A stretch of DNA of 64,000 nt. Source: a virus (lineage: Duplodnaviria; Caudoviricetes). Below, piece after piece: positions 227 through 58,197 of the stretch (its first letter is position 1; every line of letters starts with the position of its first letter). The stretch spans positions 28,157 through 92,156 of IMG/VR virus record IMGVR_UViG_3300032303_001195. The stretch is one strand, 5' to 3'. A model generated the notes under the pieces. That model was given only the letters and a program-made list of their open reading frames with translations. It was not told the origin of the DNA and ran no database searches. A program made the translations under genes and the position numbers.

Positions 227-248
227 ATACTAGCAGTGACCACTGACA
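227..248 (-). promoter_or_regulatory. RecA-NDp/PafBC-type promoter
   Basis: TGTCAGTG-N8-TAGTAT. Confidence 0.75.
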
Positions 249-312
249 TTGGAGGCATTTTTAGTAATATACTTAATAACATTCCGATAACGGATCGGGG
301 CGCCGCCCCCCC

Positions 313-441
313 CTAAAAGGGAGGTCGGTTCAGTAGTGCCTCATATTCGGCTTCCTTGTATTTCGTGTACAGGTACAGAATCACAAGGGTGTCGAACAGA
401 ATCACGCCCATCATTATGACGAACAGCCAAAATAGGTTCAT
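313..441 (-). CDS. small membrane protein (42 aa, MNLFWLFVIMMGVILFDTLVILYLY...)
   Basis: Hand translation; TAATG coupling to the upstream gene; one hydrophobic helix; stop abuts a GGCGCC element. Confidence 0.7.
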   Translation of the reverse strand: MNLFWLFVIMMGVILFDTLVILYLYTKYKEAEYEALLNRPPF

Positions 442-629
442 TAGTTCTCCTCGAAGTCATAGCAAGCGTTGATAAATACATTGCGTTGGAATCGCTCATT
501 GTCCTTAGCAAACATATCTGCGAAGTCATGAACAAGGTCAAGCATACGCTGTTCGTTACTGATTGGCATATCACCAATAAAATCAGCAAGAATGCTAGCG
601 GTTTCCACATAGTCTTTGCGTGTCATCAT
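441..629 (-). CDS. hypothetical phage protein (MTRKDY... type)
   Basis: ORF track; AAAGGA RBS and its own promoter upstream. Confidence 0.8.
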   Translation of the reverse strand: MMTRKDYVETASILADFIGDMPISNEQRMLDLVHDFADMFAKDNERFQRNVFINACYDFEEN

Positions 630-658
630 TTTAGTGTGTCCTTTTCTTTGTTGGTTTT

Positions 659-680
659 AGTTTACAGCAAGCCACCGACA
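659..680 (-). promoter_or_regulatory. RecA-NDp/PafBC-type promoter
   Basis: TGTCGGTG-N8-TAAACT. Confidence 0.75.
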
Positions 681-845
681 CTACGAACCGTAGACGGTCA
701 GCAGTGTGCGGTAGCCATTGGCACGACCCTCGCACCACGAAGCCATGCCTTCCATGCCAGCCTCACGGTACATGATTACATCAGCCTCGTTTTGCTCGGC
801 AAGCCACTCAAGCGATTCGACTGGGATAGTGATTGTGTTTTCCAT
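681..845 (-). CDS. hypothetical protein (54 aa, MENTITIPVES...)
   Basis: Start reassigned to ATG 845 after the conserved RBS ACGAAAGGAAAACT. Confidence 0.8.
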   Translation of the reverse strand: MENTITIPVESLEWLAEQNEADVIMYREAGMEGMASWCEGRANGYRTLLTVYGS

Positions 846-868
846 AGTTTTCCTTTCGTTGTATAACA

Positions 869-890
869 ACTGTATCAGTACCCACCGACA
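869..890 (-). promoter_or_regulatory. RecA-NDp/PafBC-type promoter
   Basis: TGTCGGTG-N8-TACAGT. Confidence 0.75.
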
Positions 891-952
891 TTGCAGGGCA
901 TTTACAGCGTGTTTCGTATAACGGTTTGATAACAGTCGGGGCGCCGCCCCTG

Positions 953-1174
953 CTAGTTGTAGCCCTCTACCCAAATATTTTCCTCTAACAGCATGTCCAC
1001 ATAGTCAGCGAAGCCACAGCGGTATGCGATTGGGTCACAGTTCTTGAGAATGTCTGCAGGGTAGAACTCTGAGTAGCCAATGGTCACAATGCCATAGCAA
1101 TCATTTAGATATGCGTCATAGTCATCTCGGGCTTGTTCTTCGGACAGGATTTCGTGCTTTGCGATTTCGTTCAT
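953..1174 (-). CDS. acidic hypothetical protein (73 aa), leaderless
   Basis: ORF track; ATG 6 nt after a TATAGT -10. Confidence 0.8.
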   Translation of the reverse strand: MNEIAKHEILSEEQARDDYDAYLNDCYGIVTIGYSEFYPADILKNCDPIAYRCGFADYVDMLLEENIWVEGYN

Positions 1175-1180
1175 ATAATG

Positions 1181-1202
1181 ACTATAACACTACCCACCGA
1201 CA
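1181..1202 (-). promoter_or_regulatory. RecA-NDp/PafBC-type promoter
   Basis: TGTCGGTG-N8-TATAGT. Confidence 0.75.
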
Positions 1203-1217
1203 GAGGTCGGCGCCCCC

Positions 1218-1430
1218 CTAATATCCATAGTCTTCGTCAGTACCCCAGCCAGCAGAGGCAAGAGCATCTGCATCCCACCAAGACTCGTCTGGCTCGTAGT
1301 CCTGAGACTCAAGAGAGTTGCCAGAGATGTCCCAATAGGCTTCGGTGTCCTCAACAGTCCACTCATTGCCGAGGTCGTCAAGGTAGGCGACAATCTCGTT
1401 ACCCTCACCAAAAATAGGCTCAAAAATCAT
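1218..1430 (-). CDS. highly acidic hypothetical protein (70 aa, ends DADALASAGWGTDEDYGY)
   Basis: ORF track; RBS ACGAAAGGATAACT. Confidence 0.8.
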   Translation of the reverse strand: MIFEPIFGEGNEIVAYLDDLGNEWTVEDTEAYWDISGNSLESQDYEPDESWWDADALASAGWGTDEDYGY

Positions 1431-1455
1431 TAGTTATCCTTTCGTTGTTATAACA

Positions 1456-1477
1456 AGAATAGCAGGGGGTACTGACA
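1456..1477 (-). promoter_or_regulatory. RecA-NDp/PafBC-type promoter
   Basis: TGTCAGTA-N8-TATTCT. Confidence 0.7.
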
Positions 1478-1518
1478 CTCCTCCGTAATTCACTTGGTAA
1501 GCGGATCGGCGCCGCCCC

Positions 1519-1611
1519 CTACCAGCGGAAGTCTTCCTGTTCGTCATACCATTCCTGGTAGACGTATTCGGTTCCACAGCCACAGCAGGGGCGGTCTTCA
1601 CATGTACACAT
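1519..1611 (-). CDS. Cys-rich micropeptide (30 aa, MCTCEDRPCCGCGTEY...)
   Basis: ATG 1611 follows RBS ACGAAAGG and its own promoter. Confidence 0.7.
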   Translation of the reverse strand: MCTCEDRPCCGCGTEYVYQEWYDEQEDFRW

Positions 1612-1638
1612 AGTGTGCCTTTCGTTTGGAGTGATAAA

Positions 1639-1660
1639 AGAATAGCAAGGGCTACCGACA
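1639..1660 (-). promoter_or_regulatory. RecA-NDp/PafBC-type promoter
   Basis: TGTCGGTA-N8-TATTCT. Confidence 0.7.
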
Positions 1661-1816
1661 CTACATGTTTCTAGTGTCAGCCTCAGCCACGATTTCCGCA
1701 TCAGGGAACACCTTGATACAGGTGGCACACAGTGCGACAGGGGTTTCTCGCAAGAAGCCAAGCTCAATAAGGTACACAGCGTCTCGGTGCTGGCAGAATT
1801 CACATTCGGGGTTCAT
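1661..1816 (-). CDS. CxxC..CxxC zinc-finger miniprotein (51 aa, MNPECEFC...LCATC...IVAEADTRNM)
   Basis: Hand translation; conserved RBS; paralogous to 2117-2287 and 3842-3988. Confidence 0.8.
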   Translation of the reverse strand: MNPECEFCQHRDAVYLIELGFLRETPVALCATCIKVFPDAEIVAEADTRNM

Positions 1817-1837
1817 AGTTTTCCTTTCGTTACCACT

Positions 1838-1859
1838 AGACTAGCATGACCCACCGACA
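1838..1859 (-). promoter_or_regulatory. RecA-NDp/PafBC-type promoter
   Basis: TGTCGGTG-N8-TAGTCT. Confidence 0.75.
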
Positions 1860-1977
1860 TTGGGGAAAATTTCCGAGGCGTTTTAATGCGCTTACGTAAA
1901 CTGATTTTGGAATGGTCGGGCGGCGCCGACCCCACCGACATTTGTCAAGCGACACGCCGATCGGGTTGACTTATTTT

Positions 1978-2109
1978 TCAGGGGCAGAAGGTCGCCCAAA
2001 ACAAAAGAATAAACCAATAGGCAGAGTACAAAATAGCAAAAGCCATACCAATGCGAACAACTGCCCTAGCGATACCACGAACAACATAGTAAGTCTTTGA
2101 GTGATTCAT
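1978..2109 (-). CDS. small membrane protein (43 aa, MNHSKTYYVVRG...)
   Basis: ATG 2109 after AGGAG RBS; hydrophobic C-terminal half. Confidence 0.7.
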   Translation of the reverse strand: MNHSKTYYVVRGIARAVVRIGMAFAILYSAYWFILLFWATFCP

Positions 2110-2116
2110 TATGCTC

Positions 2117-2287
2117 CTAGTCTGCAATCGGGAAGATATCAAGAATCGGGAAGGCAGTTTCCAATTCATCGCACACGATAGCATCGTGGCACTGTTGACA
2201 GACAGCGACAAAAGTCAGTTCGACAATTTCGGTGTCATACTCCAAGACTTCACGAGCCTCACGGTAGTCACAGATTTCACATTCCAT
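2117..2287 (-). CDS. CxxC..CxxC zinc-finger miniprotein (56 aa, MECEIC...VCQQC)
   Basis: Hand translation; conserved RBS ACGAAAGGAAAACT. Confidence 0.8.
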   Translation of the reverse strand: MECEICDYREAREVLEYDTEIVELTFVAVCQQCHDAIVCDELETAFPILDIFPIAD

Positions 2288-2312
2288 TAGTTTTCCTTTC
2301 GTTTACGTTTTG

Positions 2313-2334
2313 ATTCTAACAGCACCCACCGACA
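2313..2334 (-). promoter_or_regulatory. RecA-NDp/PafBC-type promoter
   Basis: TGTCGGTG-N8-TAGAAT. Confidence 0.75.
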
Positions 2335-2370
2335 TTCACATACGCGACACGCCGATAACCCAGAAAAAAG

Positions 2371-2401
2371 TTATCCACATCTTAAATAAAAGTTATCCAC
2401 A
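2371..2401 (+). promoter_or_regulatory. pair of perfect DnaA boxes
   Basis: TTATCCACA at 2371-2379 and 2393-2401. Confidence 0.75.
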
Positions 2402-2439
2402 GGGCGGCGCCGCCCCCTGCGACATTTGTCAAGTCCTGG

Positions 2440-2799
2440 CTAGGCGTTTCGCAAATATTCCATTGCCCTAGCGATGCGGTCTAAATCATCTTGGAACACG
2501 CCCAAGCCACGGTTACAGTTGTGGCAGATGTGTCCACGGAATGCACCTGTACCGTGGTCGTGGTCTACTACCCACACCGATGCGTTGCCACCTGTTCCCT
2601 TTAGTTCATCTTCTGACTTCAGGCAGATAGGGCAGGTGTGTCCCTGTTCGGGGTAGCCATACTCTTTACGCAGAGCACGACGCTCACTAGACAACTTACG
2701 ACCACAGTCACGGCACTCAGGTCGCAGGTACTTGCCACCAGAGGCAGGGGAGAATGAAGCGTGAGGTAGGGACTCTTGGCACTTGGAACAGGTTTTCAT
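2440..2799 (-). CDS. endonuclease VII-like (His-Me finger) nuclease with N-terminal Zn finger
   Basis: CSKC...[31 protein letters not shown] motif; leaderless ATG 2799 is 7 nt after a TAAAGT -10. Confidence 0.85.
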
Positions 2800-2806
2800 A
2801 GGTTTC

Positions 2807-2828
2807 ACTTTACGCTAGGGTACTGACA
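2807..2828 (-). promoter_or_regulatory. RecA-NDp/PafBC-type promoter
   Basis: TGTCAGTA-N8-TAAAGT. Confidence 0.7.
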
Positions 2829-2891
2829 TTGTGGTAAGCGACACGCCGATTACAGGAAAATTTTCAAGGCATTTTAATGGATCTACGTAAA

Positions 2892-2910
2892 TGTGGATAA
2901 GTTATCAACA
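2892..2910. promoter_or_regulatory. back-to-back DnaA boxes
   Basis: TGTGGATAA 2892-2900 (perfect, reverse) and TTATCAACA 2902-2910 (1 mismatch). Confidence 0.65.
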
Positions 2911-3004
2911 GGCGGCGCCGATTTTTTTGGAATACGCAAACCGACACGCCGTGTATTCCAAAATTGGCATATGCGAGAGATCCCGATTTGGGGAGGGTAG
3001 TCTG

Positions 3005-3142
3005 CTAACTAGCAAACTCGCCCTCTTCACGCATGATAGCGAAACGCTCGCTAATCAGGCAAGGCTTACAGATAAGCCATTCACCATGTGCGGACACATA
3101 GACAGTCTCTACAGACTTTTCACAAACTTCACAAATTTTCAT
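3005..3142 (-). CDS. CxxC-x17-CxxC zinc-finger miniprotein (45 aa, MKICEVC...LICKPC)
   Basis: Hand translation; RBS AGAAAGGAAAACT. Confidence 0.8.
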   Translation of the reverse strand: MKICEVCEKSVETVYVSAHGEWLICKPCLISERFAIMREEGEFAS

Positions 3143-3159
3143 TTTGAGTTTTCCTTTCT

Positions 3160-3315
3160 TTACTTGAGAGCGTCAAGCATACGCTCGAACGCCTCTTCGG
3201 TTAGTGACACGGTAGCCATGCCGATTACGAATGGGTAAGCCTCTGTGCGAGACTTGAGGTTGTACTTAGCGACACAAGCGTCAAGCACCTGATTCATCAT
3301 TTCTGATTTTTCCAT
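3160..3315 (-). CDS. hypothetical protein (51 aa, MEKSEMMNQVLDAC...SLTEEAFERMLDALK)
   Basis: Hand translation; RBS AGAAAGGT. Confidence 0.75.
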   Translation of the reverse strand: MEKSEMMNQVLDACVAKYNLKSRTEAYPFVIGMATVSLTEEAFERMLDALK

Positions 3316-3337
3316 TTTAGTTTTACCTTTCTTTAGC

Positions 3338-3426
3338 GAGTGAGACTTATTTGCTCTGAGACTTATTTGCTAGGCTCACCTTTCGGATTATTTGCTAGGC
3401 TCATTCTCTGAGGCTCATTCTCACTC
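3338..3426 (-). ncRNA. candidate structured 5' leader RNA with three copies of an internal-loop module
   Basis: Closing stem GAGUGAGA/UCUCACUC, two UGAGCCUAGCAAAUAA repeats around CC-GAAA-GG, plus a split third copy. Confidence 0.6.
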
Positions 3427-3451
3427 TGTGTAGTTTTTATCTTATGTCTTG

Positions 3452-3480
3452 AGACTATCAGACATTATCTGAAAAGTCAA
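3452..3480 (-). promoter_or_regulatory. sigma70/SigA-type promoter with upstream GACAC box
   Basis: TTGACT-N17-TAGTCT; CGACACGCCG at 3483-3492. Confidence 0.7.
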
Positions 3481-3511
3481 GCCGACACGCCGTGTTTGCG
3501 AAAAAAAGTTT

Positions 3512-3619
3512 TTATTTCTTTTCTGCCATGAATGCGACCATCAAGCCAAGCAATTCTTCCTGGCTCATGTCTTCCATGTCCTGAACACCTTCGGTGGTGA
3601 TTACCTTCATGAAACCCAT
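3512..3619 (-). CDS. micropeptide (35 aa, MGFMKVITTEGVQDMEDMSQEELLGL...)
   Basis: Hand translation; RBS GAAAGGAG and its own promoter. Confidence 0.75.
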   Translation of the reverse strand: MGFMKVITTEGVQDMEDMSQEELLGLMVAFMAEKK

Positions 3620-3645
3620 TTGGTTTCTCCTTTCTATCTGTAAAC

Positions 3646-3667
3646 AGACTAACAGTACCCACCGACA
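3646..3667 (-). promoter_or_regulatory. RecA-NDp/PafBC-type promoter
   Basis: TGTCGGTG-N8-TAGTCT. Confidence 0.75.
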
Positions 3668-3724
3668 TTCGACCCCCTGTTTTTCCATCTAGGGGAAATT
3701 TTTAGGTAAACATAAGGTAAATTC

Positions 3725-3745
3725 TTATCCACAAAGTTATCCACA
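3725..3745 (+). promoter_or_regulatory. pair of perfect DnaA boxes
   Basis: TTATCCACA at 3725-3733 and 3737-3745. Confidence 0.75.
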
Positions 3746-3841
3746 GGGGGGCGCCGCCCCCACCGACATTTGTCAAGTCGACACGCCGTGTTTGTCAAAA
3801 TTAGTTTGTGGTCGATCCACGAGCCACCAACAGGCGACACC

Positions 3842-3988
3842 CTAGTTTCGGGTATCAGCCTCAGCGACTATGTAGTGAGGCGTAGTCATGCGAGACTCGC
3901 AACGCACACACACATAGGTAGGCATGGACTCCATCATCATCATGATTTCGAGAGTAGCCTCATAGTATTCACAGAATGTACAGGTCAT
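3842..3988 (-). CDS. CxxC..CxxC zinc-finger miniprotein (48 aa, MTCTFC...VCVRC...IVAEADTRN)
   Basis: Hand translation; conserved RBS; same C-terminal IVAEADTRN as 1661-1816. Confidence 0.8.
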   Translation of the reverse strand: MTCTFCEYYEATLEIMMMMESMPTYVCVRCESRMTTPHYIVAEADTRN

Positions 3989-4011
3989 AGTTTTCCTTTC
4001 TTTGTATTTAC

Positions 4012-4033
4012 AGTATGACATAGGGTACTGACA
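4012..4033 (-). promoter_or_regulatory. RecA-NDp/PafBC-type promoter (variant -10)
   Basis: TGTCAGTA-N8-CATACT with extended TG. Confidence 0.6.
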
Positions 4034-4234
4034 CTACAGTACGGTCACCTTGTTTCCAAGGGTAGCGTAGGCAGTAGTGCCATTAGTAAAAGTAACCTGA
4101 CAGGTAGTACCGTTCAGTCCTTTCACGTTAGCGATAACACCTGTGTAGTGAAACACAGGTCCAAACGGATAAGGCTTGTTGCTGAACGCAACACGCTTTC
4201 CGATTAGGGATTTGATTTTTTGAGTGTAAGTCAT
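4034..4234 (-). CDS. basic beta-rich hypothetical protein (66 aa)
   Basis: ORF track; RBS GAAAGGAAG. Confidence 0.8.
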   Translation of the reverse strand: MTYTQKIKSLIGKRVAFSNKPYPFGPVFHYTGVIANVKGLNGTTCQVTFTNGTTAYATLGNKVTVL

Positions 4235-4256
4235 GATTGACTTCCTTTCTTTTTAG

Positions 4257-4316
4257 GAGGGATTTATTTGCTAGGCTCATTCCCGATTGGGACTTATTTG
4301 CTAGGCTCACTCCCTC
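4257..4316 (-). ncRNA. candidate structured 5' leader RNA with two copies of the internal-loop module
   Basis: GAGGGA/UCCCUC closing stem; two UGAGCCUAGCAAAUAA repeats (4264-4279, 4294-4309) around a UCCC-AAUC-GGGA hairpin. Confidence 0.6.
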
Positions 4317-4329
4317 GTGACTTACTTAC

Positions 4330-4351
4330 AGTATCGCAGTACCCACCGACA
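4330..4351 (-). promoter_or_regulatory. RecA-NDp/PafBC-type promoter (variant -10)
   Basis: TGTCGGTG-N8-GATACT with extended TG. Confidence 0.6.
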
Positions 4352-4409
4352 TTGGAGGGCATTTTAGTAGGGGTTTCACCCTATTTTTAGGTTAACGTAA
4401 GTATAAAGT

Positions 4410-4430
4410 TCATCCACAGAGTTATCCACA
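4410..4430 (+). promoter_or_regulatory. pair of DnaA boxes
   Basis: TCATCCACA 4410-4418 (1 mismatch) and TTATCCACA 4422-4430. Confidence 0.7.
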
Positions 4431-4473
4431 GGGCGGCGCCGCCGCCTCAAACATTTGTCAAGGCGACACGCCG

Positions 4474-4578
4474 TTAGGCGTTCATTTTCTTTTTGGTCAG
4501 AGCTAGCAACTCTTCGAATTCCAATTCAGTCATGTACTCACCCTTAGCAATGAGCATGAGTTCTTGATAGCGTGACAT
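4474..4578 (-). CDS. micropeptide (34 aa, MSRYQELMLIAKGEY...)
   Basis: Start reassigned to ATG 4578 after RBS ACGAAAGGT and its own promoter. Confidence 0.75.
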   Translation of the reverse strand: MSRYQELMLIAKGEYMTELEFEELLALTKKKMNA

Positions 4579-4603
4579 TAGTTTACCTTTCGTTAGTGTT
4601 TTG

Positions 4604-4625
4604 ATTTTAGCAGGTGGTACTGACA
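4604..4625 (-). promoter_or_regulatory. RecA-NDp/PafBC-type promoter
   Basis: TGTCAGTA-N8-TAAAAT. Confidence 0.7.

Positions 4626-6909: not shown

Positions 6910-6910
<1 letters not shown>
6524..6910 (+). CDS. virion structural protein, BppU-like beta-sandwich
   Basis: V(V)RGDT start and FDLQVT...G.I.V..DVT end; precedes the fibre gene. Confidence 0.6.
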
Positions 6911-11882
<4,972 letters not shown>

Positions 11883-11883
<1 letters not shown>

Positions 11884-49329: not shown

Positions 49330-49637
49330 TGGCTGAACGCAAAGACCGTATGGCTTTGCTCAGTCGCTATTCTAAGCTACATACCGCACGGTATGAGCAA
49401 AGACCATCGTATAATATTAATGTCGAACAGTGGGCAGCAGATGCTCTCATTGAATCATATGGTATCTCACAGTGCTATGATCTGTTAGATTATTATTTTT
49501 ATGTTGCAGAATCTCCTACATGGAAGTTCTTTGCTAACTATACAGACAAGCTCGTTGATGCCAGAGAACAAGTAGAACAAGATAAGAGGGAACGTGAAGT
49601 TCGTCGCAAGCAAGCAAAGGAGTGGCTAGGTGAATAA
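49329..49637 (+). CDS. hypothetical protein (possible helicase loader)
   Basis: Coupled directly upstream of the helicase. Confidence 0.6.
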   Translation: MAERKDRMALLSRYSKLHTARYEQRPSYNINVEQWAADALIESYGISQCYDLLDYYFYVAESPTWKFFANYTDKLVDAREQVEQDKREREVRRKQAKEWLGE

Positions 49638-50850
49638 TGTAGAGTCAAAACTTATTTCTGCTGTGCTAGAAGATAAGCAGATGCATGTATTGCTACAGGC
49701 AAACGCCGATAAGCTTCTTCGTACACACGGAGATATCTGGACCTTTATCCGCAACTACTTTGAGCAAAACAGTGCAATGCCACCAACCTCTCTTATTGTA
49801 GAGAAGTTTCGTGACTTTGAGCCAGTTGCTGGGGTAGGATCAACAAAGCATCACCTAGATGAATTACAGGCAGAATACCTAAATGATAGCCTTAAGGATA
49901 TCCTTCGTAATGCTGCCAGTGAAGTACAGGGTGGCAAGGGTGTAGAGGCTCTTGAGGGACTAATTTCTAAGACGTCCGAGCTAAAGAAGGATACGTCTGT
50001 TATTCGAGATGTTGATGTAACTGACCTTGAGTCTGCTGTAGCATACTATGAGAATGTACAAAAGCAGAATGAGTTAGGACAAATTGGAATCAAGACTGGT
50101 CTTCCAGGGTTTGATAACTATCTACCTGCTGGCATCATGCCAGGACAGTTAGGAGTATTTCTTGCCTATCCTGGTATTGGTAAGTCATGGCTATCTCTTT
50201 ACTTTGCTGTACAGGCATGGAAGCAAGGCAAGTCACCTCTTATTATCAGTCTTGAAATGAGTGAGACTGAGGTTCGTAACCGTGTGTTTACAATTATGGG
50301 AGAAGGGCTTTGGTCACACCGTCAACTTTCTGCAGGTAATGTGGAGATTGATACACTCAAGATGTGGCATAAAAAGCATGTAGAAGGTCGCCCAGAGTTC
50401 CATATTATTTCTAACGATTCAGGTGGAGAAGTTACACCATCTGTTATTCGTGGAAAGATTGACCAGTATAGTCCTGATCTAGTTATTGTTGACTACCTTC
50501 AGCTTATGTCTCCCAACCAAAAGTCAGAGTCTGAGGTTGTTCGTATGAAGAACTTGTCTCGTGAATTAAAGCTTCTGGCTATCTCAGACGAGATTCCAAT
50601 TATTGCTATCTCTTCTGCTACACCAGATGATGTTAATAAGCTTGATACTGTTCCAACACTGGGGCAGACTTCATGGTCACGACAGATTGCATATGATGCT
50701 GACTGGGTAATGGCACTCGGACGAGGTACAAACTCTGATATCATTGAGTGTGTCTTCCGTAAGAACCGTAATGGATTTATGGGAGAGTTCCTAGTACAAG
50801 TTGATTTCGACAAGGGATTCTATAAGTACAAGGATTATGAAGATGGTTAG
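49630..50850 (+). CDS. dnaB: DnaB-like replicative helicase
   Basis: AYPGIGKS Walker A, SLEM, VDYLQLM, IAYDAD, KNRNG. Confidence 0.92.
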   Translation: MNNVESKLISAVLEDKQMHVLLQANADKLLRTHGDIWTFIRNYFEQNSAMPPTSLIVEKFRDFEPVAGVGSTKHHLDELQAEYLNDSLKDILRNAASEVQGGKGVEALEGLISKTSELKKDTSVIRDVDVTDLESAVAYYENVQKQNELGQIGIKTGLPGFDNYLPAGIMPGQLGVFLAYPGIGKSWLSLYFAVQAWKQGKSPLIISLEMSETEVRNRVFTIMGEGLWSHRQLSAGNVEIDTLKMWHKKHVEGRPEFHIISNDSGGEVTPSVIRGKIDQYSPDLVIVDYLQLMSPNQKSESEVVRMKNLSRELKLLAISDEIPIIAISSATPDDVNKLDTVPTLGQTSWSRQIAYDADWVMALGRGTNSDIIECVFRKNRNGFMGEFLVQVDFDKGFYKYKDYEDG

Positions 50851-50862
50851 TATAATTAAACT

Positions 50863-51189
50863 ATGGAAAATGTCCACCACAAAGCACTTAAAAGATTTGG
50901 TCTTGACGGTACAATAAAAGACGAATCGGCAATTGGTAGACTCAGAAATGAGTACACAAGATTGCTTATAATAGAAATGCGATTGAGTGGATATGTTCCT
51001 AGGTTAGACATTAATCCAGATTTTACAATTTATTACAATCCAGAAAAAGAATATTTTGAATTTATACTGTCAATGTATGGCGTACACGTAGGAAAGAAGA
51101 AGAGCGAATGGATAGTAGGGGTAGACGAAACACGAATGGTCTATACACAGAAGAGCAAGTCAAACGAGTTATCGTCGGCAGTGGAATAA
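50863..51189 (+). CDS. hypothetical protein
   Basis: ORF track; leaderless after TATAAT. Confidence 0.7.
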   Translation: MENVHHKALKRFGLDGTIKDESAIGRLRNEYTRLLIIEMRLSGYVPRLDINPDFTIYYNPEKEYFEFILSMYGVHVGKKKSEWIVGVDETRMVYTQKSKSNELSSAVE

Positions 51190-52052
51190 ATATTGAAACT
51201 GAGGTCGATTCAGACTTCATTGTATTTTGCCCATTCCATGGTAATCACCGTACACCTGCTGGTGAAGTAGATAAACGATCTGGCATCTTCTTTTGTTTTT
51301 CTTGTCACAAGGCATGTGATCTTATTGAATTAATTATGCATACCTCTGGTCGGACATACTTTGAATCAGCTAGGTATATCAAGAGTAAAGAACAACAAAG
51401 TACAATTGAAAATGATATTAATCGTCAATTAGTTGAGAAACCACTCTATACTCAGTTTGATGAATTTACAATTAGAAGACTCAACAATGCAGCACTTGAA
51501 TCTCCAAGAGCTGTAACCTATTATCAAGGTCGCCGTATATCAAAAGAATCAGTAAATAGATTTTTACTTGGATATTCAGAAAAACAGGACATGGTAACAA
51601 TCCCAGTTCATGCACCAGATGGTATGCTGGTAGGCTTTGTGGGGCGATCTGTGGAGGGTAAAGAGTTCAAGAACACTCCAGGACTACCTAAAGGTAAGGT
51701 TCTATTTAATCTACATAGAGTAAAGGTCGCTCCTAGAGTATACGTAGTAGAATCATCATTTGATGCTATTAGGCTTGATCAGTGTGGCTTTCCAGCAGTT
51801 GCCACATTAGGTGCAAATGTTTCTAATTTTCAAATAGACTTGCTTCAAAAATATTTCAATGATATTGTTGTCATTGCAGATAATGATGAAGCTGGCGGTA
51901 ACATGAAAGATAGGCTTGTAGAAAGGCTTGGCAATCGTGTAACTGTAATACAACTAAATAAAGAATATAAAGATATCGGTGACATGGACGATGATGCTAT
52001 CAAGAATATCGATGTATCATTTGACAAATCTATTGATGCCATGCTAAACTGA
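51108..52052 (+). CDS. dnaG: DNA primase (Zn finger + TOPRIM)
   Basis: CPFH..CFSC; GFVGR; VVES.FD; ADNDEAG; KDIGD. Confidence 0.9.
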   Translation: MDSRGRRNTNGLYTEEQVKRVIVGSGINIETEVDSDFIVFCPFHGNHRTPAGEVDKRSGIFFCFSCHKACDLIELIMHTSGRTYFESARYIKSKEQQSTIENDINRQLVEKPLYTQFDEFTIRRLNNAALESPRAVTYYQGRRISKESVNRFLLGYSEKQDMVTIPVHAPDGMLVGFVGRSVEGKEFKNTPGLPKGKVLFNLHRVKVAPRVYVVESSFDAIRLDQCGFPAVATLGANVSNFQIDLLQKYFNDIVVIADNDEAGGNMKDRLVERLGNRVTVIQLNKEYKDIGDMDDDAIKNIDVSFDKSIDAMLN

Positions 52053-52081
52053 TAAACCCTAGAAAAATAAGGAGAAATAAA

Positions 52082-52747
52082 ATGAGCGTAATTAAGGGAC
52101 TCAAAAATATCAATGCCCTGCTTGACAAACCAAAGTATGACGAGGATTCACCACGAGTTCGTTGGCTTAAGATTGCTGACGGACAGGCAGTAAAGATCCG
52201 TTTCATCGAAGAGTTGGATGAAGATTCAGCTAACTACTCTGCAGACCGTGGTCTTGCACTTGTAGTAAAGGAACACACCAATCCAAAGGACTACAAGCGT
52301 AAGGCTGTAGACACAATGGACTCAGAGGGTCGTGACTGGGCTGAAGAAATGTACCGTAAGGACTTCAAGAACAATGCAGGTTGGAAGGCTCGCCTTCGCT
52401 TCTACTGCAACGTACTTGTTGATGATGGTATTGAAGACCCCTATGTTGCCATTTGGTCAATGGGAGTCGGAAAGCAGTCAGCGTTCAATACAATTCGTGA
52501 GTACGCTCTTGAGACTGGAAGCATTTCCAATATTACTTGGAAGCTTAAGCGTAATGGAGTAAGCACTGAAACCAGCTACACGCTGATTCCTTCTGCTCCA
52601 GATGCAGAGCCTTTTGATTGGGGTAGCTTTAAGCCATACCCACTTGAGTCTGCACTCAAGAACATTCCATATGCAGAACAGGAGGCATTCTATCTTGGAT
52701 TTGATACGCCTTCATCTGCATCATCCACATCCAGCATCGACTGGTAA
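52082..52747 (+). CDS. single-stranded DNA-binding protein (gp32-like)
   Basis: IRF..KLKRNG..TSY pattern; S-rich tail ending DW; between primase and polymerase. Confidence 0.7.
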   Translation: MSVIKGLKNINALLDKPKYDEDSPRVRWLKIADGQAVKIRFIEELDEDSANYSADRGLALVVKEHTNPKDYKRKAVDTMDSEGRDWAEEMYRKDFKNNAGWKARLRFYCNVLVDDGIEDPYVAIWSMGVGKQSAFNTIREYALETGSISNITWKLKRNGVSTETSYTLIPSAPDAEPFDWGSFKPYPLESALKNIPYAEQEAFYLGFDTPSSASSTSSIDW

Positions 52748-52754
52748 TTAACTT

Positions 52755-52790
52755 GGGGGGTGGACTGAATACAGTCTGCCCCCCTACCTT
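52755..52790 (+). terminator. stem-loop (terminator/stabiliser)
   Basis: GGGGGGTGGACTG-AATA-CAGTCTGCCCCCC; weak U tail. Confidence 0.6.
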
Positions 52791-52808
52791 CTAACAGAAA
52801 GACTTTAA

Positions 52809-55800
52809 ATGAGTTACGCTGGACTACACGTTCACACCCACTACTCGCTATTTGACGGAATTGCTACACCACAGGAATACGTGGATCGTGCCGTCGCATT
52901 AGGAATGCCAGCCATTGCTATTACCGATCATGGTTCTCTGTCTGGACACCGTGAAATGTATCGTGCTGCAAAAGAGGCAGGTATTAAACCTATTCTCGGT
53001 ATCGAGGGGTACATTACCAAAGACCGTCTTGAGCACGAAGATAAGAAAGAAAAGAATGATCCTCTAGACCTTAACTATAACCACCTTATTATTCTTGCTA
53101 AGAATGCCAAGGGGCTAGAGAATCTTAATAAGCTTAATGAACTTGCATGGACAGAAGGTTTCTATAAGAAGCCACGTATTGATTGGACTATTCTTGAGCA
53201 ATATAAAAAGGGTCTTATCATTACATCAGGTTGTCTCAGTGGCGTTCTTGCTAAAGCTATTGAAGCTGGAGAACTTGCATATGCAAAGGAGCATATCAAG
53301 TGGTGTAAGGAAACCTTTGGTGATGATTACTACCTTGAGGTAATGCCTCACAATCCTGCAGAGATTAATCAGACTATCTTGGATCTTGCAGACGAGTTTG
53401 GCATCAAGCCTGTAGTTACCCCAGACTGTCACCACTCTGACCCTGCTCAGAAGGAAATCCAAGAGCTTAAGCTTATCCTTAACTCATACTCTAACAAGAC
53501 TGAGAAGGATGTTACATACGAGAAGTCTCGTGAGTATGACAACCTTATGGATCGACTTGACTACCTTTATGGTGCAGACCGCCAGATGTCATTTAACAAG
53601 TTTGAGATTCATCTTTTGTCAGACGAAGAGATGCACGATGCCATGAAAGCTCAGGGTATTGACCGTGAAGACATGTATGAGGCTACTCTTGAGATTGTAG
53701 ATAAGATTGAAGACTACGATATTCAGGACCACATTGACCTGCTTCCTGCACAATACCGTGACCCTGATGGAGAGATTCGTACTCTTGCTATGGAAGGTCT
53801 GACTGCTCGTGGTCTAGTAGATAATCAAGAATACCTTGACCGTCTAGATGAAGAGCTTGAAATTATCAAGGATAAAAAGTTTGCGCCATACTTTTTGGTG
53901 GTTCGCAATATGATTAACTGGGCAAAGAAAGAAGGTATTCTCGTTGGTCCAGGTCGTGGTTCTGCTGCTGGCTCTCTACTGTGTTATGCTCTTGGTATCA
54001 CAGATATTGATCCAATCATTCATGGTCTTCTATTCTTTCGCTTTATCAATCCAGAGCGAAATGATTTTCCAGATATTGATACTGATATTCAAGACTCTCG
54101 CCGTGATGAAGTAAAAGAATATCTAGTTAAGCAATACCGTCACGTTGCATCTATTGCTACATTCTTGCAGTTTAAGGATAAGGGTGTTGTGCGAGACATT
54201 GCTCGTGTGCTTCACATTCCACTGCCAGAAGTAAACAAGGTCATGAAATTAATTGACACTTGGGATGATTACTGCAATTCAAAGTCCACTGCTGAGTTCC
54301 GTGAGAAGTATCCAGAGATTGAGAAATATGGAGAGCAACTGCGTGGTCGAATTCGTGGTACTGGTATCCATGCTGCTGGTGTTGTAACTGCAAAGGAGCC
54401 TATCTTTAAGTATGCTCCAATGGAGACTCGCACCTCACCAGGAACCAAGGAACGTATTCCTGTAGTTGCTGTTGACATGGCAGAGGCAGAGCGTATTGGT
54501 CTTATCAAGATCGATGCTCTTGGTCTTAAGACTCTTAGTGTGCTTGATGATACTATTAAGATTATTAAGGAACGCCACGGTATCCAGATTGAGCCATTGA
54601 AGATTGACATGGATGATTCCAATGTCTACCAGATGCTCTCAGATGGCTACACAAAGGGTGTATTCCAGTGTGAAGCTACGCCATATACAAACCTGCTAGT
54701 AAAGATGGGTGTAAAGAACTTTGATGAACTTGCAGCATCTAATGCTCTCGTTCGTCCAGGTGCTATGAATACAATCGGTAAGGACTACATTGCTCGCAAG
54801 CAGGGTCGCCAAGCCATTGGGTTCAAGCACAAGATTATGAAGGACTTCACATCTGATACCTATGGCTGTATTCTTTATCAGGAGCAGGTTATGCTTGCTT
54901 GTACAAACCTCGGCGGTATGACAATGGCTGAGGCTGATAAAGTTCGTAAGATTATTGGTAAGAAGAAGGATGCTAAAGAATTCGATCAGTTCCAGGACCA
55001 GTTTGTACAGGGTGCTTCACAGTATCTTGGAGAAGAGGGTGCTCGTGACCTGTGGCATGACTTTGAAGCACACGCTGGCTACTCATTTAACAAGAGCCAC
55101 GCTGTAGCCTATTCTACGCTGTCTTACTGGACTGCATGGCTAAAGTATCACTACCCAATTGAGTTTATGTTTGCTCTTCTTAAGAATGAGAAGGACAAGG
55201 ATGCTCGTACGGAATACCTCATTGAGGCAAAGCGTATGAATATTCCTGTACGTCTTCCTCACGTTAACGAGTCTGACATTGATTTCAAGATTGAGGGCAA
55301 AGGTATTCGATTTGGACTTAGTGCTATCAAGTTTGTATCTGACAATATTGCGTCTAAGTACATCGCTGCCCGACCTTTTAACTCATATAAGGAAGTAGAA
55401 GAGTTCACATTTGGCAAGGGTAACGGAGTCAATAGTCGTGCTCTATCATCTATGCGACTAATTGGTGCTACTGCCTTTGATGATAATCCTGCTAACCAGG
55501 ACGAGATTCGTGAGAACTTATACGAGTATCTAAACTTGCCAGAGTTTAATATGTCAGTACCAACTCATTTTCATGCATTTATCGATACTGCAGAAGATTA
55601 TGAGGAAAAGGGTTCTTTCATTCTTATGGGTATGGTCAAGAACATTAAGCGTGGCAAGGGCTGGAGCCGTGTAGAGATCCTAGATAAGACTGGTCTTGTA
55701 GGTATCTTTGATGATGAACAGTCTACGATTGAGGCAGGTCGTACATACATCATTCTTGCTAGTGATAATCGTGTGCTATCTGCTGTACCTGTAGATGAAG

Positions 55801-56084
55801 CCAAGGGATCTAATTCTGCACTGATTAAGTTCTTAAATTACAAGCAGTTGCCTTATACAGATGATGAAATGTATGTAGTATCTTTTAAGTCACGAGTTAC
55901 AAAAGCTGGTAAGAAAATGGCATACCTGACCCTTGCAGATACTGCACGAGACTTGCACCCAGTAACAGTATTCCCATTGCAATATGCAAAGGCATACATG
56001 AAGATTGAGGAAGGCAAGGCTTATAAGTTTAGCTTTAACAAAACTAAAGATGGAACAACAATATTGGAGGATGTAAATGTTTGA
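52809..56084 (+). CDS. dnaE: DNA polymerase III alpha subunit (family C)
   Basis: LHVHTHYS PHP, GRGSAAGS, FPDIDTD, HAAG, KIDALGL, YSFNKSH. Confidence 0.97.
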   Translation: MSYAGLHVHTHYSLFDGIATPQEYVDRAVALGMPAIAITDHGSLSGHREMYRAAKEAGIKPILGIEGYITKDRLEHEDKKEKNDPLDLNYNHLIILAKNAKGLENLNKLNELAWTEGFYKKPRIDWTILEQYKKGLIITSGCLSGVLAKAIEAGELAYAKEHIKWCKETFGDDYYLEVMPHNPAEINQTILDLADEFGIKPVVTPDCHHSDPAQKEIQELKLILNSYSNKTEKDVTYEKSREYDNLMDRLDYLYGADRQMSFNKFEIHLLSDEEMHDAMKAQGIDREDMYEATLEIVDKIEDYDIQDHIDLLPAQYRDPDGEIRTLAMEGLTARGLVDNQEYLDRLDEELEIIKDKKFAPYFLVVRNMINWAKKEGILVGPGRGSAAGSLLCYALGITDIDPIIHGLLFFRFINPERNDFPDIDTDIQDSRRDEVKEYLVKQYRHVASIATFLQFKDKGVVRDIARVLHIPLPEVNKVMKLIDTWDDYCNSKSTAEFREKYPEIEKYGEQLRGRIRGTGIHAAGVVTAKEPIFKYAPMETRTSPGTKERIPVVAVDMAEAERIGLIKIDALGLKTLSVLDDTIKIIKERHGIQIEPLKIDMDDSNVYQMLSDGYTKGVFQCEATPYTNLLVKMGVKNFDELAASNALVRPGAMNTIGKDYIARKQGRQAIGFKHKIMKDFTSDTYGCILYQEQVMLACTNLGGMTMAEADKVRKIIGKKKDAKEFDQFQDQFVQGASQYLGEEGARDLWHDFEAHAGYSFNKSHAVAYSTLSYWTAWLKYHYPIEFMFALLKNEKDKDARTEYLIEAKRMNIPVRLPHVNESDIDFKIEGKGIRFGLSAIKFVSDNIASKYIAARPFNSYKEVEEFTFGKGNGVNSRALSSMRLIGATAFDDNPANQDEIRENLYEYLNLPEFNMSVPTHFHAFIDTAEDYEEKGSFILMGMVKNIKRGKGWSRVEILDKTGLVGIFDDEQSTIEAGRTYIILASDNRVLSAVPVDEAKGSNSALIKFLNYKQLPYTDDEMYVVSFKSRVTKAGKKMAYLTLADTARDLHPVTVFPLQYAKAYMKIEEGKAYKFSFNKTKDGTTILEDVNV

Positions 56085-56394
56085 TGATTTATGCGAAGAG
56101 CTTCATGCTACTGCAGTAGAGAAGGGATTCTGGTCAGAAGAGGTAGACGATATCTTTATTACCAAACAACTTATGATGATTGTGTCAGAGACTGTAGAGG
56201 TAATGGAAGCTATCCGCAAGGATAAAGGTGAACATGCTATTTCAGATGAAATGGCAGACATTCTTATCCGTACCTTGGACTTATATGCTGGTCTAGTTGA
56301 GCATGGCTACACTCGTGTATCACTTGACCACGCACTAGCAAACAAAGCTGGCTTTAATAAGACTCGACCAGAAAAAAATGGGGTGCGTTTCTAA
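56077..56394 (+). CDS. MazG-like NTP pyrophosphohydrolase
   Basis: SE..E..EAIRK...DEMADILIR.LD. Confidence 0.8.
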   Translation: MFDDLCEELHATAVEKGFWSEEVDDIFITKQLMMIVSETVEVMEAIRKDKGEHAISDEMADILIRTLDLYAGLVEHGYTRVSLDHALANKAGFNKTRPEKNGVRF

Positions 56395-57407
56395 TGGCAA
56401 TGACAATGGAAGACGTTATCGCAAAGCTTGATCCTAAGCTTCGTAAGAATCTATTTATTGGAGACGAGACGCCAGAGACTATTTTACAGCCTACAGCAAG
56501 CTACGGTCTTAATCGTGCTCTTGGTGGAGGGCTTCCCTATGGTCGCCAGGTGCTTATCTGGGGCAGTAAGTCATCTGCTAAGTCATCTATGTGCCTTCAA
56601 ATGATTGGTCTTGCACAGCAGGAAGGTAAGGTCTGTGCATGGATTGATGCTGAGATGTCATACGATAAAGGATGGGCTACTCGTTTGGGGGTAGATACAT
56701 CAAAGCTTATCTACTCACAGGCTCGTACAATTAACGAGATGGTAGACGTAGGTACAAAACTTATGAATGCAGGTGTGGACCTCATTGTAGTTGATTCAAT
56801 TACATCACTGCTTCCTGCTATCTATTTTGAAAAGGGTAGCGATGAACTAAAGGATCTTGAGAACACTAAGCAGATTGGTGCTGAGTCACGAGACTTTAGT
56901 AATGCATGGAAGATGATTAACTATGCTAACAATAAGCCAAAGCCTACTTTGTTCGTACTTATTAGTCAGAGTCGTAATAACATCTCTGCCATGTACACCT
57001 CACAACAGCCTACAGGCGGTCAAGCAACAAAGTTCTATTCGTCTACAGTCATTAAACTGTTCTCGTCTGAGTCTGACAATCAGGCTATCAAGGGCAAGAT
57101 TCCTGTAGGAGATAAACTCATTGAAGAGAAGATTGGTCGTAAGGTTCGATGGGAAGTTCAGTTTTCTAAGACCTCTCCAGGTTTCCAGTCTGGTGAGTAT
57201 GACTTCTACTTCCGTGGTCCATTCGTTGGCGTAGACGCCATTGGTGACCTTGTAGACACTGCAGAGCTTGCTGGTATTGTAGAGCGTACAGGTGCTTGGT
57301 ATGTTGTATCTCCAGAGAAAAAAGTTCAGGGTAGAGATGCATTCATTACATATGTTCGTGAGAATGATGAATTCCGCAAGTCTATTGAGGATCAGTTGAA
57401 TGGCTAA
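56394..57407 (+). CDS. recA: RecA-like recombinase
   Basis: LGGGLPYGR, WIDAE, IVVDS, ISQ.R, TGG.A.KFYSS, GAWY, QGR. Confidence 0.92.
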   Translation: MAMTMEDVIAKLDPKLRKNLFIGDETPETILQPTASYGLNRALGGGLPYGRQVLIWGSKSSAKSSMCLQMIGLAQQEGKVCAWIDAEMSYDKGWATRLGVDTSKLIYSQARTINEMVDVGTKLMNAGVDLIVVDSITSLLPAIYFEKGSDELKDLENTKQIGAESRDFSNAWKMINYANNKPKPTLFVLISQSRNNISAMYTSQQPTGGQATKFYSSTVIKLFSSESDNQAIKGKIPVGDKLIEEKIGRKVRWEVQFSKTSPGFQSGEYDFYFRGPFVGVDAIGDLVDTAELAGIVERTGAWYVVSPEKKVQGRDAFITYVRENDEFRKSIEDQLNG

Positions 57408-57585
57408 GTATAATATTTATCCAGGCTCATTCCCATGTCACACATGTGGAATTGAAGTTAAAACAATTAGAAGTTATCCAGGACTTAAAAGACTTTCTTG
57501 GATGTGTCCAGATCGTCACCTTACAGAAGTCAGCTTAGAAACTAAAAAGGATAAGAAAGATTATGAGCGAGAAGAACGAGAGTAA
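57400..57585 (+). CDS. small Zn-ribbon protein
   Basis: CHTC...CPDRH; overlapping coupling. Confidence 0.7.
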   Translation: MAKYNIYPGSFPCHTCGIEVKTIRSYPGLKRLSWMCPDRHLTEVSLETKKDKKDYEREERE

Positions 57586-57877
57586 GCGTATTGGTGCTAC
57601 TCAGCATAAGAACTCTGGTCGCAATACAAAGAAGGGTGATGCCAAATGGCATAACTTCTGCGTAGACTTTAAAGAGGTCGGCAAATCATTTACACTAAAT
57701 AAAGAAGTCTGGGCTAAGGCAACAACAGATGCAATCAAGAATAAACTTGATCCTGCTATTGTAGTTGTGATTGGTGATGGAGAACAGAAGACTCGTTTAG
57801 CAGTCGTAGAATTTTCTATCCTTGAGCAAATGATTGAAGAATTAGCCTTCCTAAATTACACAGATAACCCAGAGTAA
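57563..57877 (+). CDS. PD-(D/E)xK Holliday-junction-resolvase-like nuclease
   Basis: E....NSG..KGD..VDFK. Confidence 0.65.
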   Translation: MSEKNESKRIGATQHKNSGRNTKKGDAKWHNFCVDFKEVGKSFTLNKEVWAKATTDAIKNKLDPAIVVVIGDGEQKTRLAVVEFSILEQMIEELAFLNYTDNPE

Positions 57878-57892
57878 GGTATACTAGATATA

Positions 57893-58195
57893 ATGGAAAA
57901 TACAACAACAATTGACATGGTAAATGGTCTAAGTGAAATTGCAGACTATATGGATGATAAGGAACTTACAGAAGCCCTTACTATGATCGCTAAACTAATT
58001 ATCAAACCAGATATTCCTCTGGCTGTTGCTACAATCGAGATCGTTCGGTTACAAGCAATTGCTGCCAAGATGCAATTCCGTGCAACTTGGCTTACCAACG
58101 TAGACAAGGGAGACAGAGCGAAGAAGAATATCTATTATACTGCAGCTGAATCAATTAATAATTTGGTTTCCGCATTGAAGTATATTACTCGCTAA
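57893..58195 (+). CDS. hypothetical helical protein
   Basis: ORF track; leaderless-type promoter. Confidence 0.7.
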   Translation: MENTTTIDMVNGLSEIADYMDDKELTEALTMIAKLIIKPDIPLAVATIEIVRLQAIAAKMQFRATWLTNVDKGDRAKKNIYYTAAESINNLVSALKYITR

Positions 58196-58197
58196 AT

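Follow-up and report, generated by a model that had tools for sequence, protein, structure and literature searches.

A nested hairpin built from copies of one asymmetric internal loop in early leaders of a group of tailed phages

This analysis concerns a stretch of 64,000 nucleotides (nt) from a tailed phage (Caudoviricetes; IMG/VR record IMGVR_UViG_3300032303_001195, positions 28,157 to 92,156), here called the window, and a structured element that occurs twice near its beginning, in the 5' leaders of two small genes on the minus strand (leaders A and B; Table 1). A sequence-only reading, made by a model without database searches, had described both leaders as long hairpins in which one short internal loop recurs inside different stems, each hairpin being placed between a promoter and a ribosome-binding site (RBS). 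In these respects the description is accurate: the sequences lie exactly where it had put them (4316-4257 for leader A and 3426-3338 for leader B), RNAfold returns the nested hairpins that it had predicted, the third loop of leader B is divided between the two arms as proposed, and both leaders are preceded by a promoter motif and followed by an RBS and a start codon. The z-scores of the single sequences are modest (-2.1 and -1.2), and thus the individual folds suggest structure without proving it.

The surrounding array of small genes is rich in one type of promoter motif. The minus strand of the window has eleven copies of tGTCgg-N10-tAnnnT, from 248 to 4625, whereas the plus strand lacks the motif over the entire 64 kb; the related loci described below hold 770. 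In the form tGTCgg(N10)tA(N3)T, this is the consensus of the PafBC-dependent (RecA-NDp) promoters of Actinobacteria (PMC8635444; PMC6789036), and the small early cassettes seem to be driven from the DNA-damage promoter type of the host. The promoter of leader A departs from the consensus in a -10 hexamer that starts with G instead of T.

Table 1. Positions of the hairpins, their parts and other features (window coordinates, except in the last row; ORF, open reading frame; aa, amino acids; bp, base pairs)
Feature	Position	Strand	Description
Leader A hairpin, two-loop form	4257-4316	minus	sequence, RNAfold, covariance model R1 (70.1 bits, E 3e-16)
Leader A outer stem	4311-4316 paired with 4257-4262	minus	6 bp
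Leader A apical hairpin	4280-4293	minus	between both 16-mers
Leader A 16-mer copy 1	4294-4309	minus	exact match; UGAGC in outer loop, CUAG strand, CAAAUAA in inner loop
Leader A 16-mer copy 2	4264-4279	minus	exact match; UGAGC in inner loop, CUAG strand, CAAAUAA in outer loop
Leader B hairpin, three-loop form	3338-3426	minus	sequence, RNAfold, model R1 (67.5 bits for the core)
Leader B 16-mer copy 1	3388-3403	minus	exact match
Leader B 16-mer copy 2	3363-3378	minus	exact match
Leader B split third loop, 5' half	3411-3417	minus	UGAGC and closing CU
Leader B split third loop, 3' half	3347-3355	minus	closing AG and CAAAUAA
Leader A promoter	4330-4351	minus	tGTCgg box, 10 nt, GATACT; near match to the PafBC-type motif
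Leader B promoter	3452-3480	minus	sigma-A type: TTGACT, 17 nt, TAGTCT, extended -10 TG
First ORF after leader A	4034-4234	minus	66 aa, no family found; RBS about 10 nt before ATG
First ORF after leader B	3160-3315	minus	51 aa, no family found
PafBC-type motifs (starts)	4625, 3667, 2828, 2334, 1859, 1660, 1477, 1202, 890, 680, 248	minus	
CGGCGTGTCG boxes	4775, 4473, 3788, 3492, 2951, 2848, 2354, 1959	minus	
Paired DnaA boxes	4430/4418, 3745/3733, 2401/2379	minus	abut GC-rich GGCGCC-centred palindromes
Endonuclease VII domain protein	2440-2808	minus	122 aa; inside the small-gene array
tRNA gene cut by the window edge	1-44	minus	Rfam tRNA, 33.3 bits
1657-aa protein	6910-11883	plus	seven collagen triple-helix repeat stretches, C-terminal phage tail-fibre repeat
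Replication/recombination block	49630-59004	plus	DnaB-like helicase, DnaG-type primase, DnaE-type Pol III alpha, RecA, Cas4-like exonuclease
CRP/GlxR-type apical hairpins in relatives	L005:5093-5162, L006:3699-3768, L013:2663-2732		examples

Each hairpin contains two exact copies of a 16-mer made up of UGAGC, CUAG and CAAAUAA. Leader B is the more elaborate of the two, being built in layers from an 8-bp outer stem, the loop formed by the split copy, a middle stem (3+4 bp, one A.A mismatch) and, in the centre, a two-copy core with the apex CC-GAAA-GG; two nested, outward-facing modules were picked up in it by the loop-module detector mentioned below. The same split-loop design recurs in the relatives L031, L034, L041, L052, L054 and L065, in which the outer loop lies 3-8 bp off the core. 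Altogether, the window holds four mismatch-free copies of the 16-mer plus the split one, all on the minus strand, a count matched by none of 100 dinucleotide shuffles even when three mismatches were allowed (0.9 matches are expected at that tolerance). The 92-kb record has no further copies and every module lies on the gene strand, so that this genome totals two hairpins with five loops.

Evidence that the fold itself is maintained comes from related viruses, for which IMG/VR was scanned by exact match to the 16-mer; the counts given for relatives rest on the matches listed. At least 120 viral contigs carry the 16-mer, mostly as two copies 25-34 nt apart. Among the matches listed, deduplication leaves 98 distinct two-copy elements, among which 59 outer stems and 52 apical hairpins can be told apart, and the spacing of the copies takes the values 25, 26, 27, 28, 29, 30, 31, 33 and 34 nt, with 32 unseen. 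The hairpin of 9-18 nt that separates the two copies differs from element to element in length as well as in sequence, and the flanks are paired to one another. When the 98 elements were used to build a covariance model (R1), it recovered 123 elements in 100 sources. In its alignment, standard pairs fill 87.9% of the cells, compared with 62.0% after shuffling, and the covariation score of 0.561 (0.127 for shuffled data) was reached by none of 500 shuffles and falls to at most 0.14 if the partners are slid by 1-3 columns. An alignment of this kind is fitted to the model and therefore biased toward structure; nonetheless, the variety of the stems is evident in the raw sequences.

The helix between the two loops is informative in its own right. 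CUAG of the first copy pairs with CUAG of the second to form 4 bp, rarely 5 bp, and its variants still pair (CUAC/GUAG, CUAAG/CUUAG, CUUAG/CUAAG, CUAGG/CCUAG and CUAAU/AUUAG), the innermost pair being G-C 86 times, C-G six times, A-U twice and U-A once. The helix thus survives at least five types of compensatory change or pair insertion, all of which abolish the identity of the repeats. The nested single-strand hairpin fold is under selection for base pairing. This bears out the proposal of a structured, modular element whose closing and apical stems are unlike in sequence and yet paired, together with the covariation that had been named as its check in homologs. The pairing of the repeats through CUAG likewise stands, but the core is not constant, as had been assumed, since it varies by complementary changes.

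The true repeating unit is the asymmetric internal loop formed by UGAGC opposite CAAAUAA, which the earlier description had already singled out, and not the 16-mer. It can be written as 5'-(R)UGAGC-3' facing 5'-CAAAUAA(R')-3', with C-G and then U-A as the inner closure and, on the outer side, an A.G or G.A apposition or direct contact with the stem. UGAGC and the final UAA are unchanged in both copies of all 98 distinct elements, and variation in CAAAUAA is restricted to position 2 (A/G) and position 4 (A/G/U). The purine before UGAGC and the base after CAAAUAA combine as A.G in 59 cases, G.A in 30, A.A in five and G.G in none, and a second class of elements lacks the extra purine before UGAGC. 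Whichever way the loop is oriented, the strand leading into UGAGC tends to be purine-rich (36 versus 9 outer stems and 15 versus 4 apical stems), which gives the module a polarity exceeding that of plain pairing. The carriers are well diverged, with portal proteins 59-72% identical to that of the window and most early proteins not recognisably common, and therefore the invariance of the loop bases reflects a real constraint.

From one to three such loops are found per hairpin, embedded in freely varying helices. Although two loops facing one another across the CUAG helix are the common form, single-loop hairpins also occur, for instance at L095:1562-1603, where UGAGC-CUC, a GAAA tetraloop and GAG-CAAAUAA sit within a 7-bp outer stem, and at L071:2799-2843 and L066:211-259. 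Further arrangements include two nested loops that share one orientation (L049:2766-2837) and tandem hairpins side by side (L030 and L039). A detector defined by the loop and its two helices found 159 modules in the related loci and three in shuffled copies of them. Of the 99 distinct upstream windows, 80 have the motif AAWUARR (mostly AAAUAAG) 5-25 nt before the hairpin, the background being 6%. The word is that of the 3' loop strand and is missing from both leaders of the window; it may belong to the initially transcribed sequence or provide the site once more in single-stranded form.

When considered from the point of view of transcription, the element has a well-defined place. A same-strand promoter motif ends 8-55 nt before the first UGAGC in 108 of 120 distinct upstream contexts, with 51 of the tGTCgg-N10-tAnnnT type, 45 combining a TTGAY -35 with a TAnnnT -10 and 12 showing both. 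The direction of the element is always that of the flanking genes, even on the opposite arms of L022. With a gene-directed promoter at so short a distance, the hairpin is interpreted as forming the 5' portion of an early RNA, in which it is preceded by 8-20 nt of single-stranded, A/U-rich sequence. An RBS and a start codon follow within 75 nt in 73 of 121 contexts, at a variable distance from the element, and in 32 of the 121 a second promoter, of PafBC type, precedes any RBS. The sequence-only reading of the element as a leader of genes in general therefore holds as to its promoter-proximal position, but has to be narrowed to a low-copy element that heads an early arm and lacks a direct RBS in about 40% of cases. 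A side observation concerns translation from upstream: the 16-mer includes UGA, UAG and UAA, and stops close all three frames across the hairpin in 78 of 99 distinct elements, whereby translation arriving from upstream is blocked.

Neither the genes that follow nor the local sequence signals tie the element to a particular kind of gene control. The ORFs that come next, 28-70 aa long, form 38 unrelated clusters, the largest of which comprises 22 of 119 after iteration with hidden Markov models (HMMs), and no common downstream gene was found by BLAST clustering and HMM iteration. According to pairing predictions for 89 leaders, the Shine-Dalgarno core is open, with a mean unpaired probability of 0.74 and a value below 0.5 in only 3%, and the 3' strand of the outer stem was not seen to mask the RBS in them, which speaks against simple translational occlusion. 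Intrinsic terminators consist of a GC-rich hairpin and a U-run; both hairpins of the window are followed by A-rich sequence with no U-run, and a terminator scan returned no minus-strand site there.

Genomes of about 100 kb carry one to three hairpins, the complete relatives of 100-110 kb having one or two. Among 12 large related contigs, absence of an element is uninformative, as these are only 45-84% complete. In all six genomes compared (this one and five complete or nearly complete relatives), the element is found at a strand switch, 0.3-2.2 kb past the point where the coding strand changes. Upstream of it, its strand is almost non-coding, and for 10-16 kb or more downstream the same strand is the main or only coding one in most 2-kb bins and carries nearly all the same-strand PafBC-type motifs. 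The arm so headed runs away from the structural genes in four genomes and toward them in two (G003 and G004), and loci of the L022 type have elements on both divergent arms. DnaA boxes are concentrated nearby: across 121 loci, the 500-nt bin upstream of the element contains 71, compared with 2-8 in other bins. They lie at -120 to -300 in both orientations, with an oriC-like cluster in L062, and the cluster at the strand switch may mark the phage origin. Finally, five contigs (L047, L057, L068, L089 and L113) end inside the element or within 80 nt of it; this is most simply explained by assemblies breaking where a conserved island meets strain-variable flanks, and not by genome ends.

The phage group to which the window belongs is represented by at least 600 related contigs in IMG/VR, and its nearest cultured relatives are Streptomyces phages of the Stanwilliamsviridae (44-47% identity in the portal protein and 53-56% in DnaE). 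An actinobacterial host is likely, given the promoter type and this relationship. Among bacterial genomes, the two-copy pattern occurs solely on four short contigs of metagenome-assembled genomes with conflicting taxon labels, which are probably mis-binned phage and offer no prophage or host clue. In Pfam or PHROGs scans, about 60 proteins of this genome include structural, replication, nucleotide-metabolism and glycosyltransferase genes. The 1657-aa protein with collagen repeats is the first gene of the arm that diverges from the early array.

Two further signals accompany the element or the early promoters. The 10-nt box CGGCGTGTCG recurs just before the -35 of many early promoters, is conserved in many related loci and often supplies the 3' side of a small ACGCC-UAAC-GGCGU hairpin; it might delimit cassettes, act as a weak terminator or bind a factor. 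In 26 relatives, moreover, a perfect palindrome of the CRP/GlxR type, TGTGA-N6-TCACA, forms the apical hairpin; its arms are conserved and do not covary, and its centre lies about 60-65 nt before the start of a second, PafBC-type promoter. In 14 others a GTGA-N6-TCAC unit stands directly 3' of the element. The palindrome probably marks the DNA-level site of a regulator nested within the RNA element.

The earlier impression that the element belongs to no known family is borne out by the searches. In the whole window, Rfam 15 at gathering score recognises only the truncated tRNA, and at E up to 10 between 3300 and 4350 it gives four chance-level eukaryotic matches, none of them on the element. 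Model R1 has no match on the cultured phages Wakanda, BoomerJR or Coruscant, a blastn comparison of 50,697 GenBank phage records with the region and with leader B returned none, and the sequence of the element was not met in the literature searched. Thus, it is classed as a cis-encoded structured recognition RNA of phage early transcripts, outside any described family.

Several known RNAs nevertheless share part of its organization. In the lambdoid phage HK022, putL and putR are cis-acting antiterminator RNAs. Like the element, they are structured RNAs of about 60-90 nt just after early promoters, with stems that matter by pairing, conserved unpaired bases and indifference to the next gene, and they occur once or twice per genome, one per divergent early arm; the element shares their promoter-proximal, low-copy position at the head of the early operon. 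On the other hand, put consists of two adjacent stem-loops instead of nested copies of one internal loop, and it carries RNA polymerase past terminators in cis with no protein factor, whereas the palindromes downstream of the element are only putative terminators. The lambda sites nutL and nutR (boxA and boxB, with the N protein) also stand at the entrance of early operons and tether a factor to the transcription complex, but boxB is a simple hairpin whose terminal loop is read by an arginine-rich peptide, in contrast to the one to three conserved internal loops of the element. The closest architecture is that of the ribonucleic antiterminator (RAT) hairpin of LicT/SacY/BglG, a short hairpin in which two asymmetric internal loops resemble each other and are related by quasi two-fold symmetry, with an A-rich 3' strand, as in the element, and a protein dimer as its ligand. 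However, RAT overlaps a terminator and controls sugar operons, whereas the element has no overlapping terminator, a different loop sequence, single-loop forms and the possibility of a third loop at a variable distance. With the CsrB/RsmZ sponges and the Rev response element (RRE) of HIV, it has in common one short motif repeated unpaired in variable helices, yet CsrB has many more sites and RRE nucleates an oligomer on a far larger RNA, in comparison with one to six loops per phage genome. Actinobacteria are not known to have the usual RNA chaperones CsrA, Hfq and ProQ.

Comparison was extended to smaller motifs and to repeats. The UAA/GAN motif (Lee, Gutell and Russell 2006, as set out in PMC2615604) is GNRA-like and presents stacked adenines, with the published signature ccUAAg / uGAagg and Watson-Crick pairs directly flanking its core. 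The element resembles it in having UAA on one strand and GAG opposite, invariant in all 98 elements, but differs from the motif as described there in the CAAA before UAA, the C after GAG, an A before the U that has no partner and the absence of flanking Watson-Crick pairs, including the X1:X5 pair of the UA_handle. A kink-turn, in which tandem sheared G.A and A.G pairs (G at 1b, A at 1n) come after a bulge of three bases, was ruled out by inspection: if AAA is taken as the bulge, the opposite strand does offer G-A beside the helix, but the bulged strand continues U-A, which puts U instead of G at position 1b. In Cluster K mycobacteriophages, the 13-bp box known as the start-associated sequence (SAS) is located at start codons, in 11-19 copies per genome, and its extended form (ESAS) is an inverted repeat with 17-bp conserved arms and a variable spacer (PMC3203893). 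These are likewise short, conserved, transcription-oriented intergenic sequences of actinophages before unrelated genes, non-structural in the case of SAS/ESAS. The element is no member of that family, as there are only one to three copies per genome, at a variable distance from the start codon, and it is the unpaired loops that are conserved and the arms that vary and covary. A tandem-repeat RNA, such as a type III antitoxin or a CRISPR-like array, was rejected on account of the missing fixed period and the variable hairpin of 9-18 nt between the copies.

The reading preferred here, with a rough probability of 0.45, is that of a multivalent docking hairpin acting in cis at the entry of an operon. 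Each loop would be a docking site for one conserved macromolecule, be it a host or phage protein or RNA polymerase, and the hairpin would be a multivalent platform for it. In a nut- or put-like manner, the hairpin would serve to load or alter the transcription complex, or to label the transcript, at the first promoter, which is often of the sigma-A type and would need no PafBC; the marked RNA would then be handled unlike those from internal promoters, with regard to read-through, stability or timing. Docking sites are suggested by the conservation of the loops, their repetition at variable spacing, the covarying purine-purine closure and the purine polarity of the helices, whilst a role in cis at operon entry is favoured by the low copy number, the lack of a tie to any gene, the untouched RBS and the position at the entrance of one or both arms. 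It is on balance probable that the hairpin is a macromolecule-binding platform of some kind; a specifically antitermination-like outcome at operon entry is rather doubtful.

A number of observations weigh against a docking platform at operon entry. Most cassettes of the window have their own promoter, as the 11 PafBC-type motifs indicate, and the GC palindromes between cassettes showed no U-runs in the terminator scan, so that a need for antitermination is not demonstrated. Identical loops at variable spacing are a better fit to independent sites than to a single dock for RNA polymerase, and the DnaA-box clusters upstream are just as compatible with a link to the origin. The Pfam or PHROGs scans of about 60 proteins of this genome revealed no RNA-binding domain; likewise, the early ORFs of the window include no small arginine-rich, N-like basic protein. 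Finally, the assignment to the sense strand rests on the promoters and the gene direction only. Wobble counts do not distinguish the strands: in the R1 alignment, A.C outnumbers G.U by 57 to 16, an excess attributable to register slips of one stem class, and a register-free count gives 4 versus 4. The antisense strand folds with a slightly better minimum free energy, but its register is broken by the compensatory variants.

Alternatively, the RNA itself may be the product, namely an immediate-early multivalent decoy, sponge or activator of a conserved host nucleic-acid-binding protein, for instance a defence or RNA-decay factor or, as a candidate, PafBC with its WYL domain, the leader position being simply its route of expression. 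This is unlikely, although it accommodates a good deal of what was found: hairpins with one to three identical sites, the tandem hairpins of L030 and L039, loops that stay invariant as the phages diverge, unrelated downstream genes, the 40% of elements with no direct RBS and some units that seem to consist of the element only. It would also suit the sigma-A type promoter that drives 45 of 120 elements, the rest of the array being of PafBC type. On the other side, the copy number is low for a sponge, and neither a terminator nor a processing site delimits a discrete small RNA. Regarding the candidate, PafBC requires at least 6 nt of single strand and is able to bind such a stretch when it lies between hairpins (PMC11804915), but 12-nt single-stranded RNA was inactive on M. 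smegmatis PafBC (PMC11804915). The binding of single strands by PafBC has not been reported to be sequence-specific, which would leave the invariant loops unexplained. It is distinctly improbable that the hairpin is an immediate-early RNA effector, namely a multivalent and sequence-specific ligand for a conserved actinobacterial nucleic-acid-binding protein, in its sharpest form PafBC, and not a regulator of the next gene. If that form were true, the hairpin, often produced from an ordinary sigma-A promoter where the array starts, would dock on the WYL (Sm-fold) domains of PafBC in imitation of the single-stranded-DNA signal of damage, at least ten PafBC-type promoters of the early cassettes of the phage would be switched on without DNA damage, and a host stress activator would be hijacked by RNA.

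Similarly improbable is a link to replication, in which the transcript, or the same hairpin in the displaced or lagging strand of DNA, would aid initiation near the DnaA boxes, whether as a primer or R-loop former, as a signal for priming or helicase loading, or through transcriptional activation of the origin. The 71 DnaA boxes within 500 nt upstream (2-8 in other bins), the cluster in L062 and the position at a point of divergent transcription in six of six genomes argue for it, as do the presence of one or two elements per genome, sometimes one per arm, the DnaB-, DnaG- and DnaE-type proteins encoded by the phage and stems that could form equally well in DNA. However, the same-direction promoter 8-55 nt upstream and an RBS in 60% of cases favour an mRNA leader, leader B has no DnaA box directly upstream, and extrusion from the duplex would presumably be costly with loops of 5/7 nt and stems of 12-16 bp.

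Lower still stands the possibility of a processing or stability element with no dedicated partner, either a target of general host RNases (RNase III or RNase E/J) or a barrier to them that would determine both where the first early transcript starts (its 5' end) and its half-life. RNase III sites of the T7 type are irregular hairpins with asymmetric internal loops between early genes, and a promoter-proximal hairpin in a leader bears some likeness to them. Nonetheless, general RNases need no 12 invariant loop bases over such divergence, the A/U-rich lead-in of 8-20 nt means that the hairpin is not a 5'-terminal protective stem, and the helices are short and interrupted.

A riboswitch-like sensor, with a small ligand in each loop and cooperativity arising from tandem loops, is very unlikely. 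Tandem arrangements exist in several riboswitch classes, and invariant internal loops within covarying helices would be in keeping with them, but there is no sign of an expression platform, be it a terminator or a helix masking the Shine-Dalgarno sequence in competition with the aptamer, given the lack of a U-run and a Shine-Dalgarno core that is open regardless of the hairpin. Moreover, the 38 unrelated clusters of tiny ORFs do not form one pathway, a loop of 5/7 nt is small for a selective pocket, and single, double and triple forms at variable spacing contradict one composite pocket. Last, a double-stranded DNA site, that is, direct-repeat operators or iterons, hardly deserves consideration as the main explanation, although the sequence-only reading had named such an operator as a refutation of its view: two exact direct repeats near promoters and DnaA boxes would suggest it, and the apical TGTGA-N6-TCACA palindrome of 26 relatives is itself probably a DNA site, but it is refuted by repeat cores that vary toward complementarity and not identity, a spacing of 25-34 nt (32 excepted) with no helical phasing, flanks that covary as stems, and split and single-loop versions that retain the loop and lose the 16-mer.

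The element is a new RNA motif with about a hundred distinct natural variants and unusually strong support. Its design is rare, in that one small internal loop is reused once, twice (face-to-face or nested) or thrice, which makes it a natural test case for a single internal loop as a portable recognition module. The place of the hairpin after the first promoter, together with the strand switch, the DnaA boxes and the PafBC-type arrays, suggests a role in the first decisions of infection, in phages of a host group, probably actinobacterial, whose early regulation is almost unstudied. Finding a partner could reveal a new mechanism of antitermination or take-over, the manipulation of a host regulator by RNA, or an orthogonal RNA-protein pair for use as a tool.

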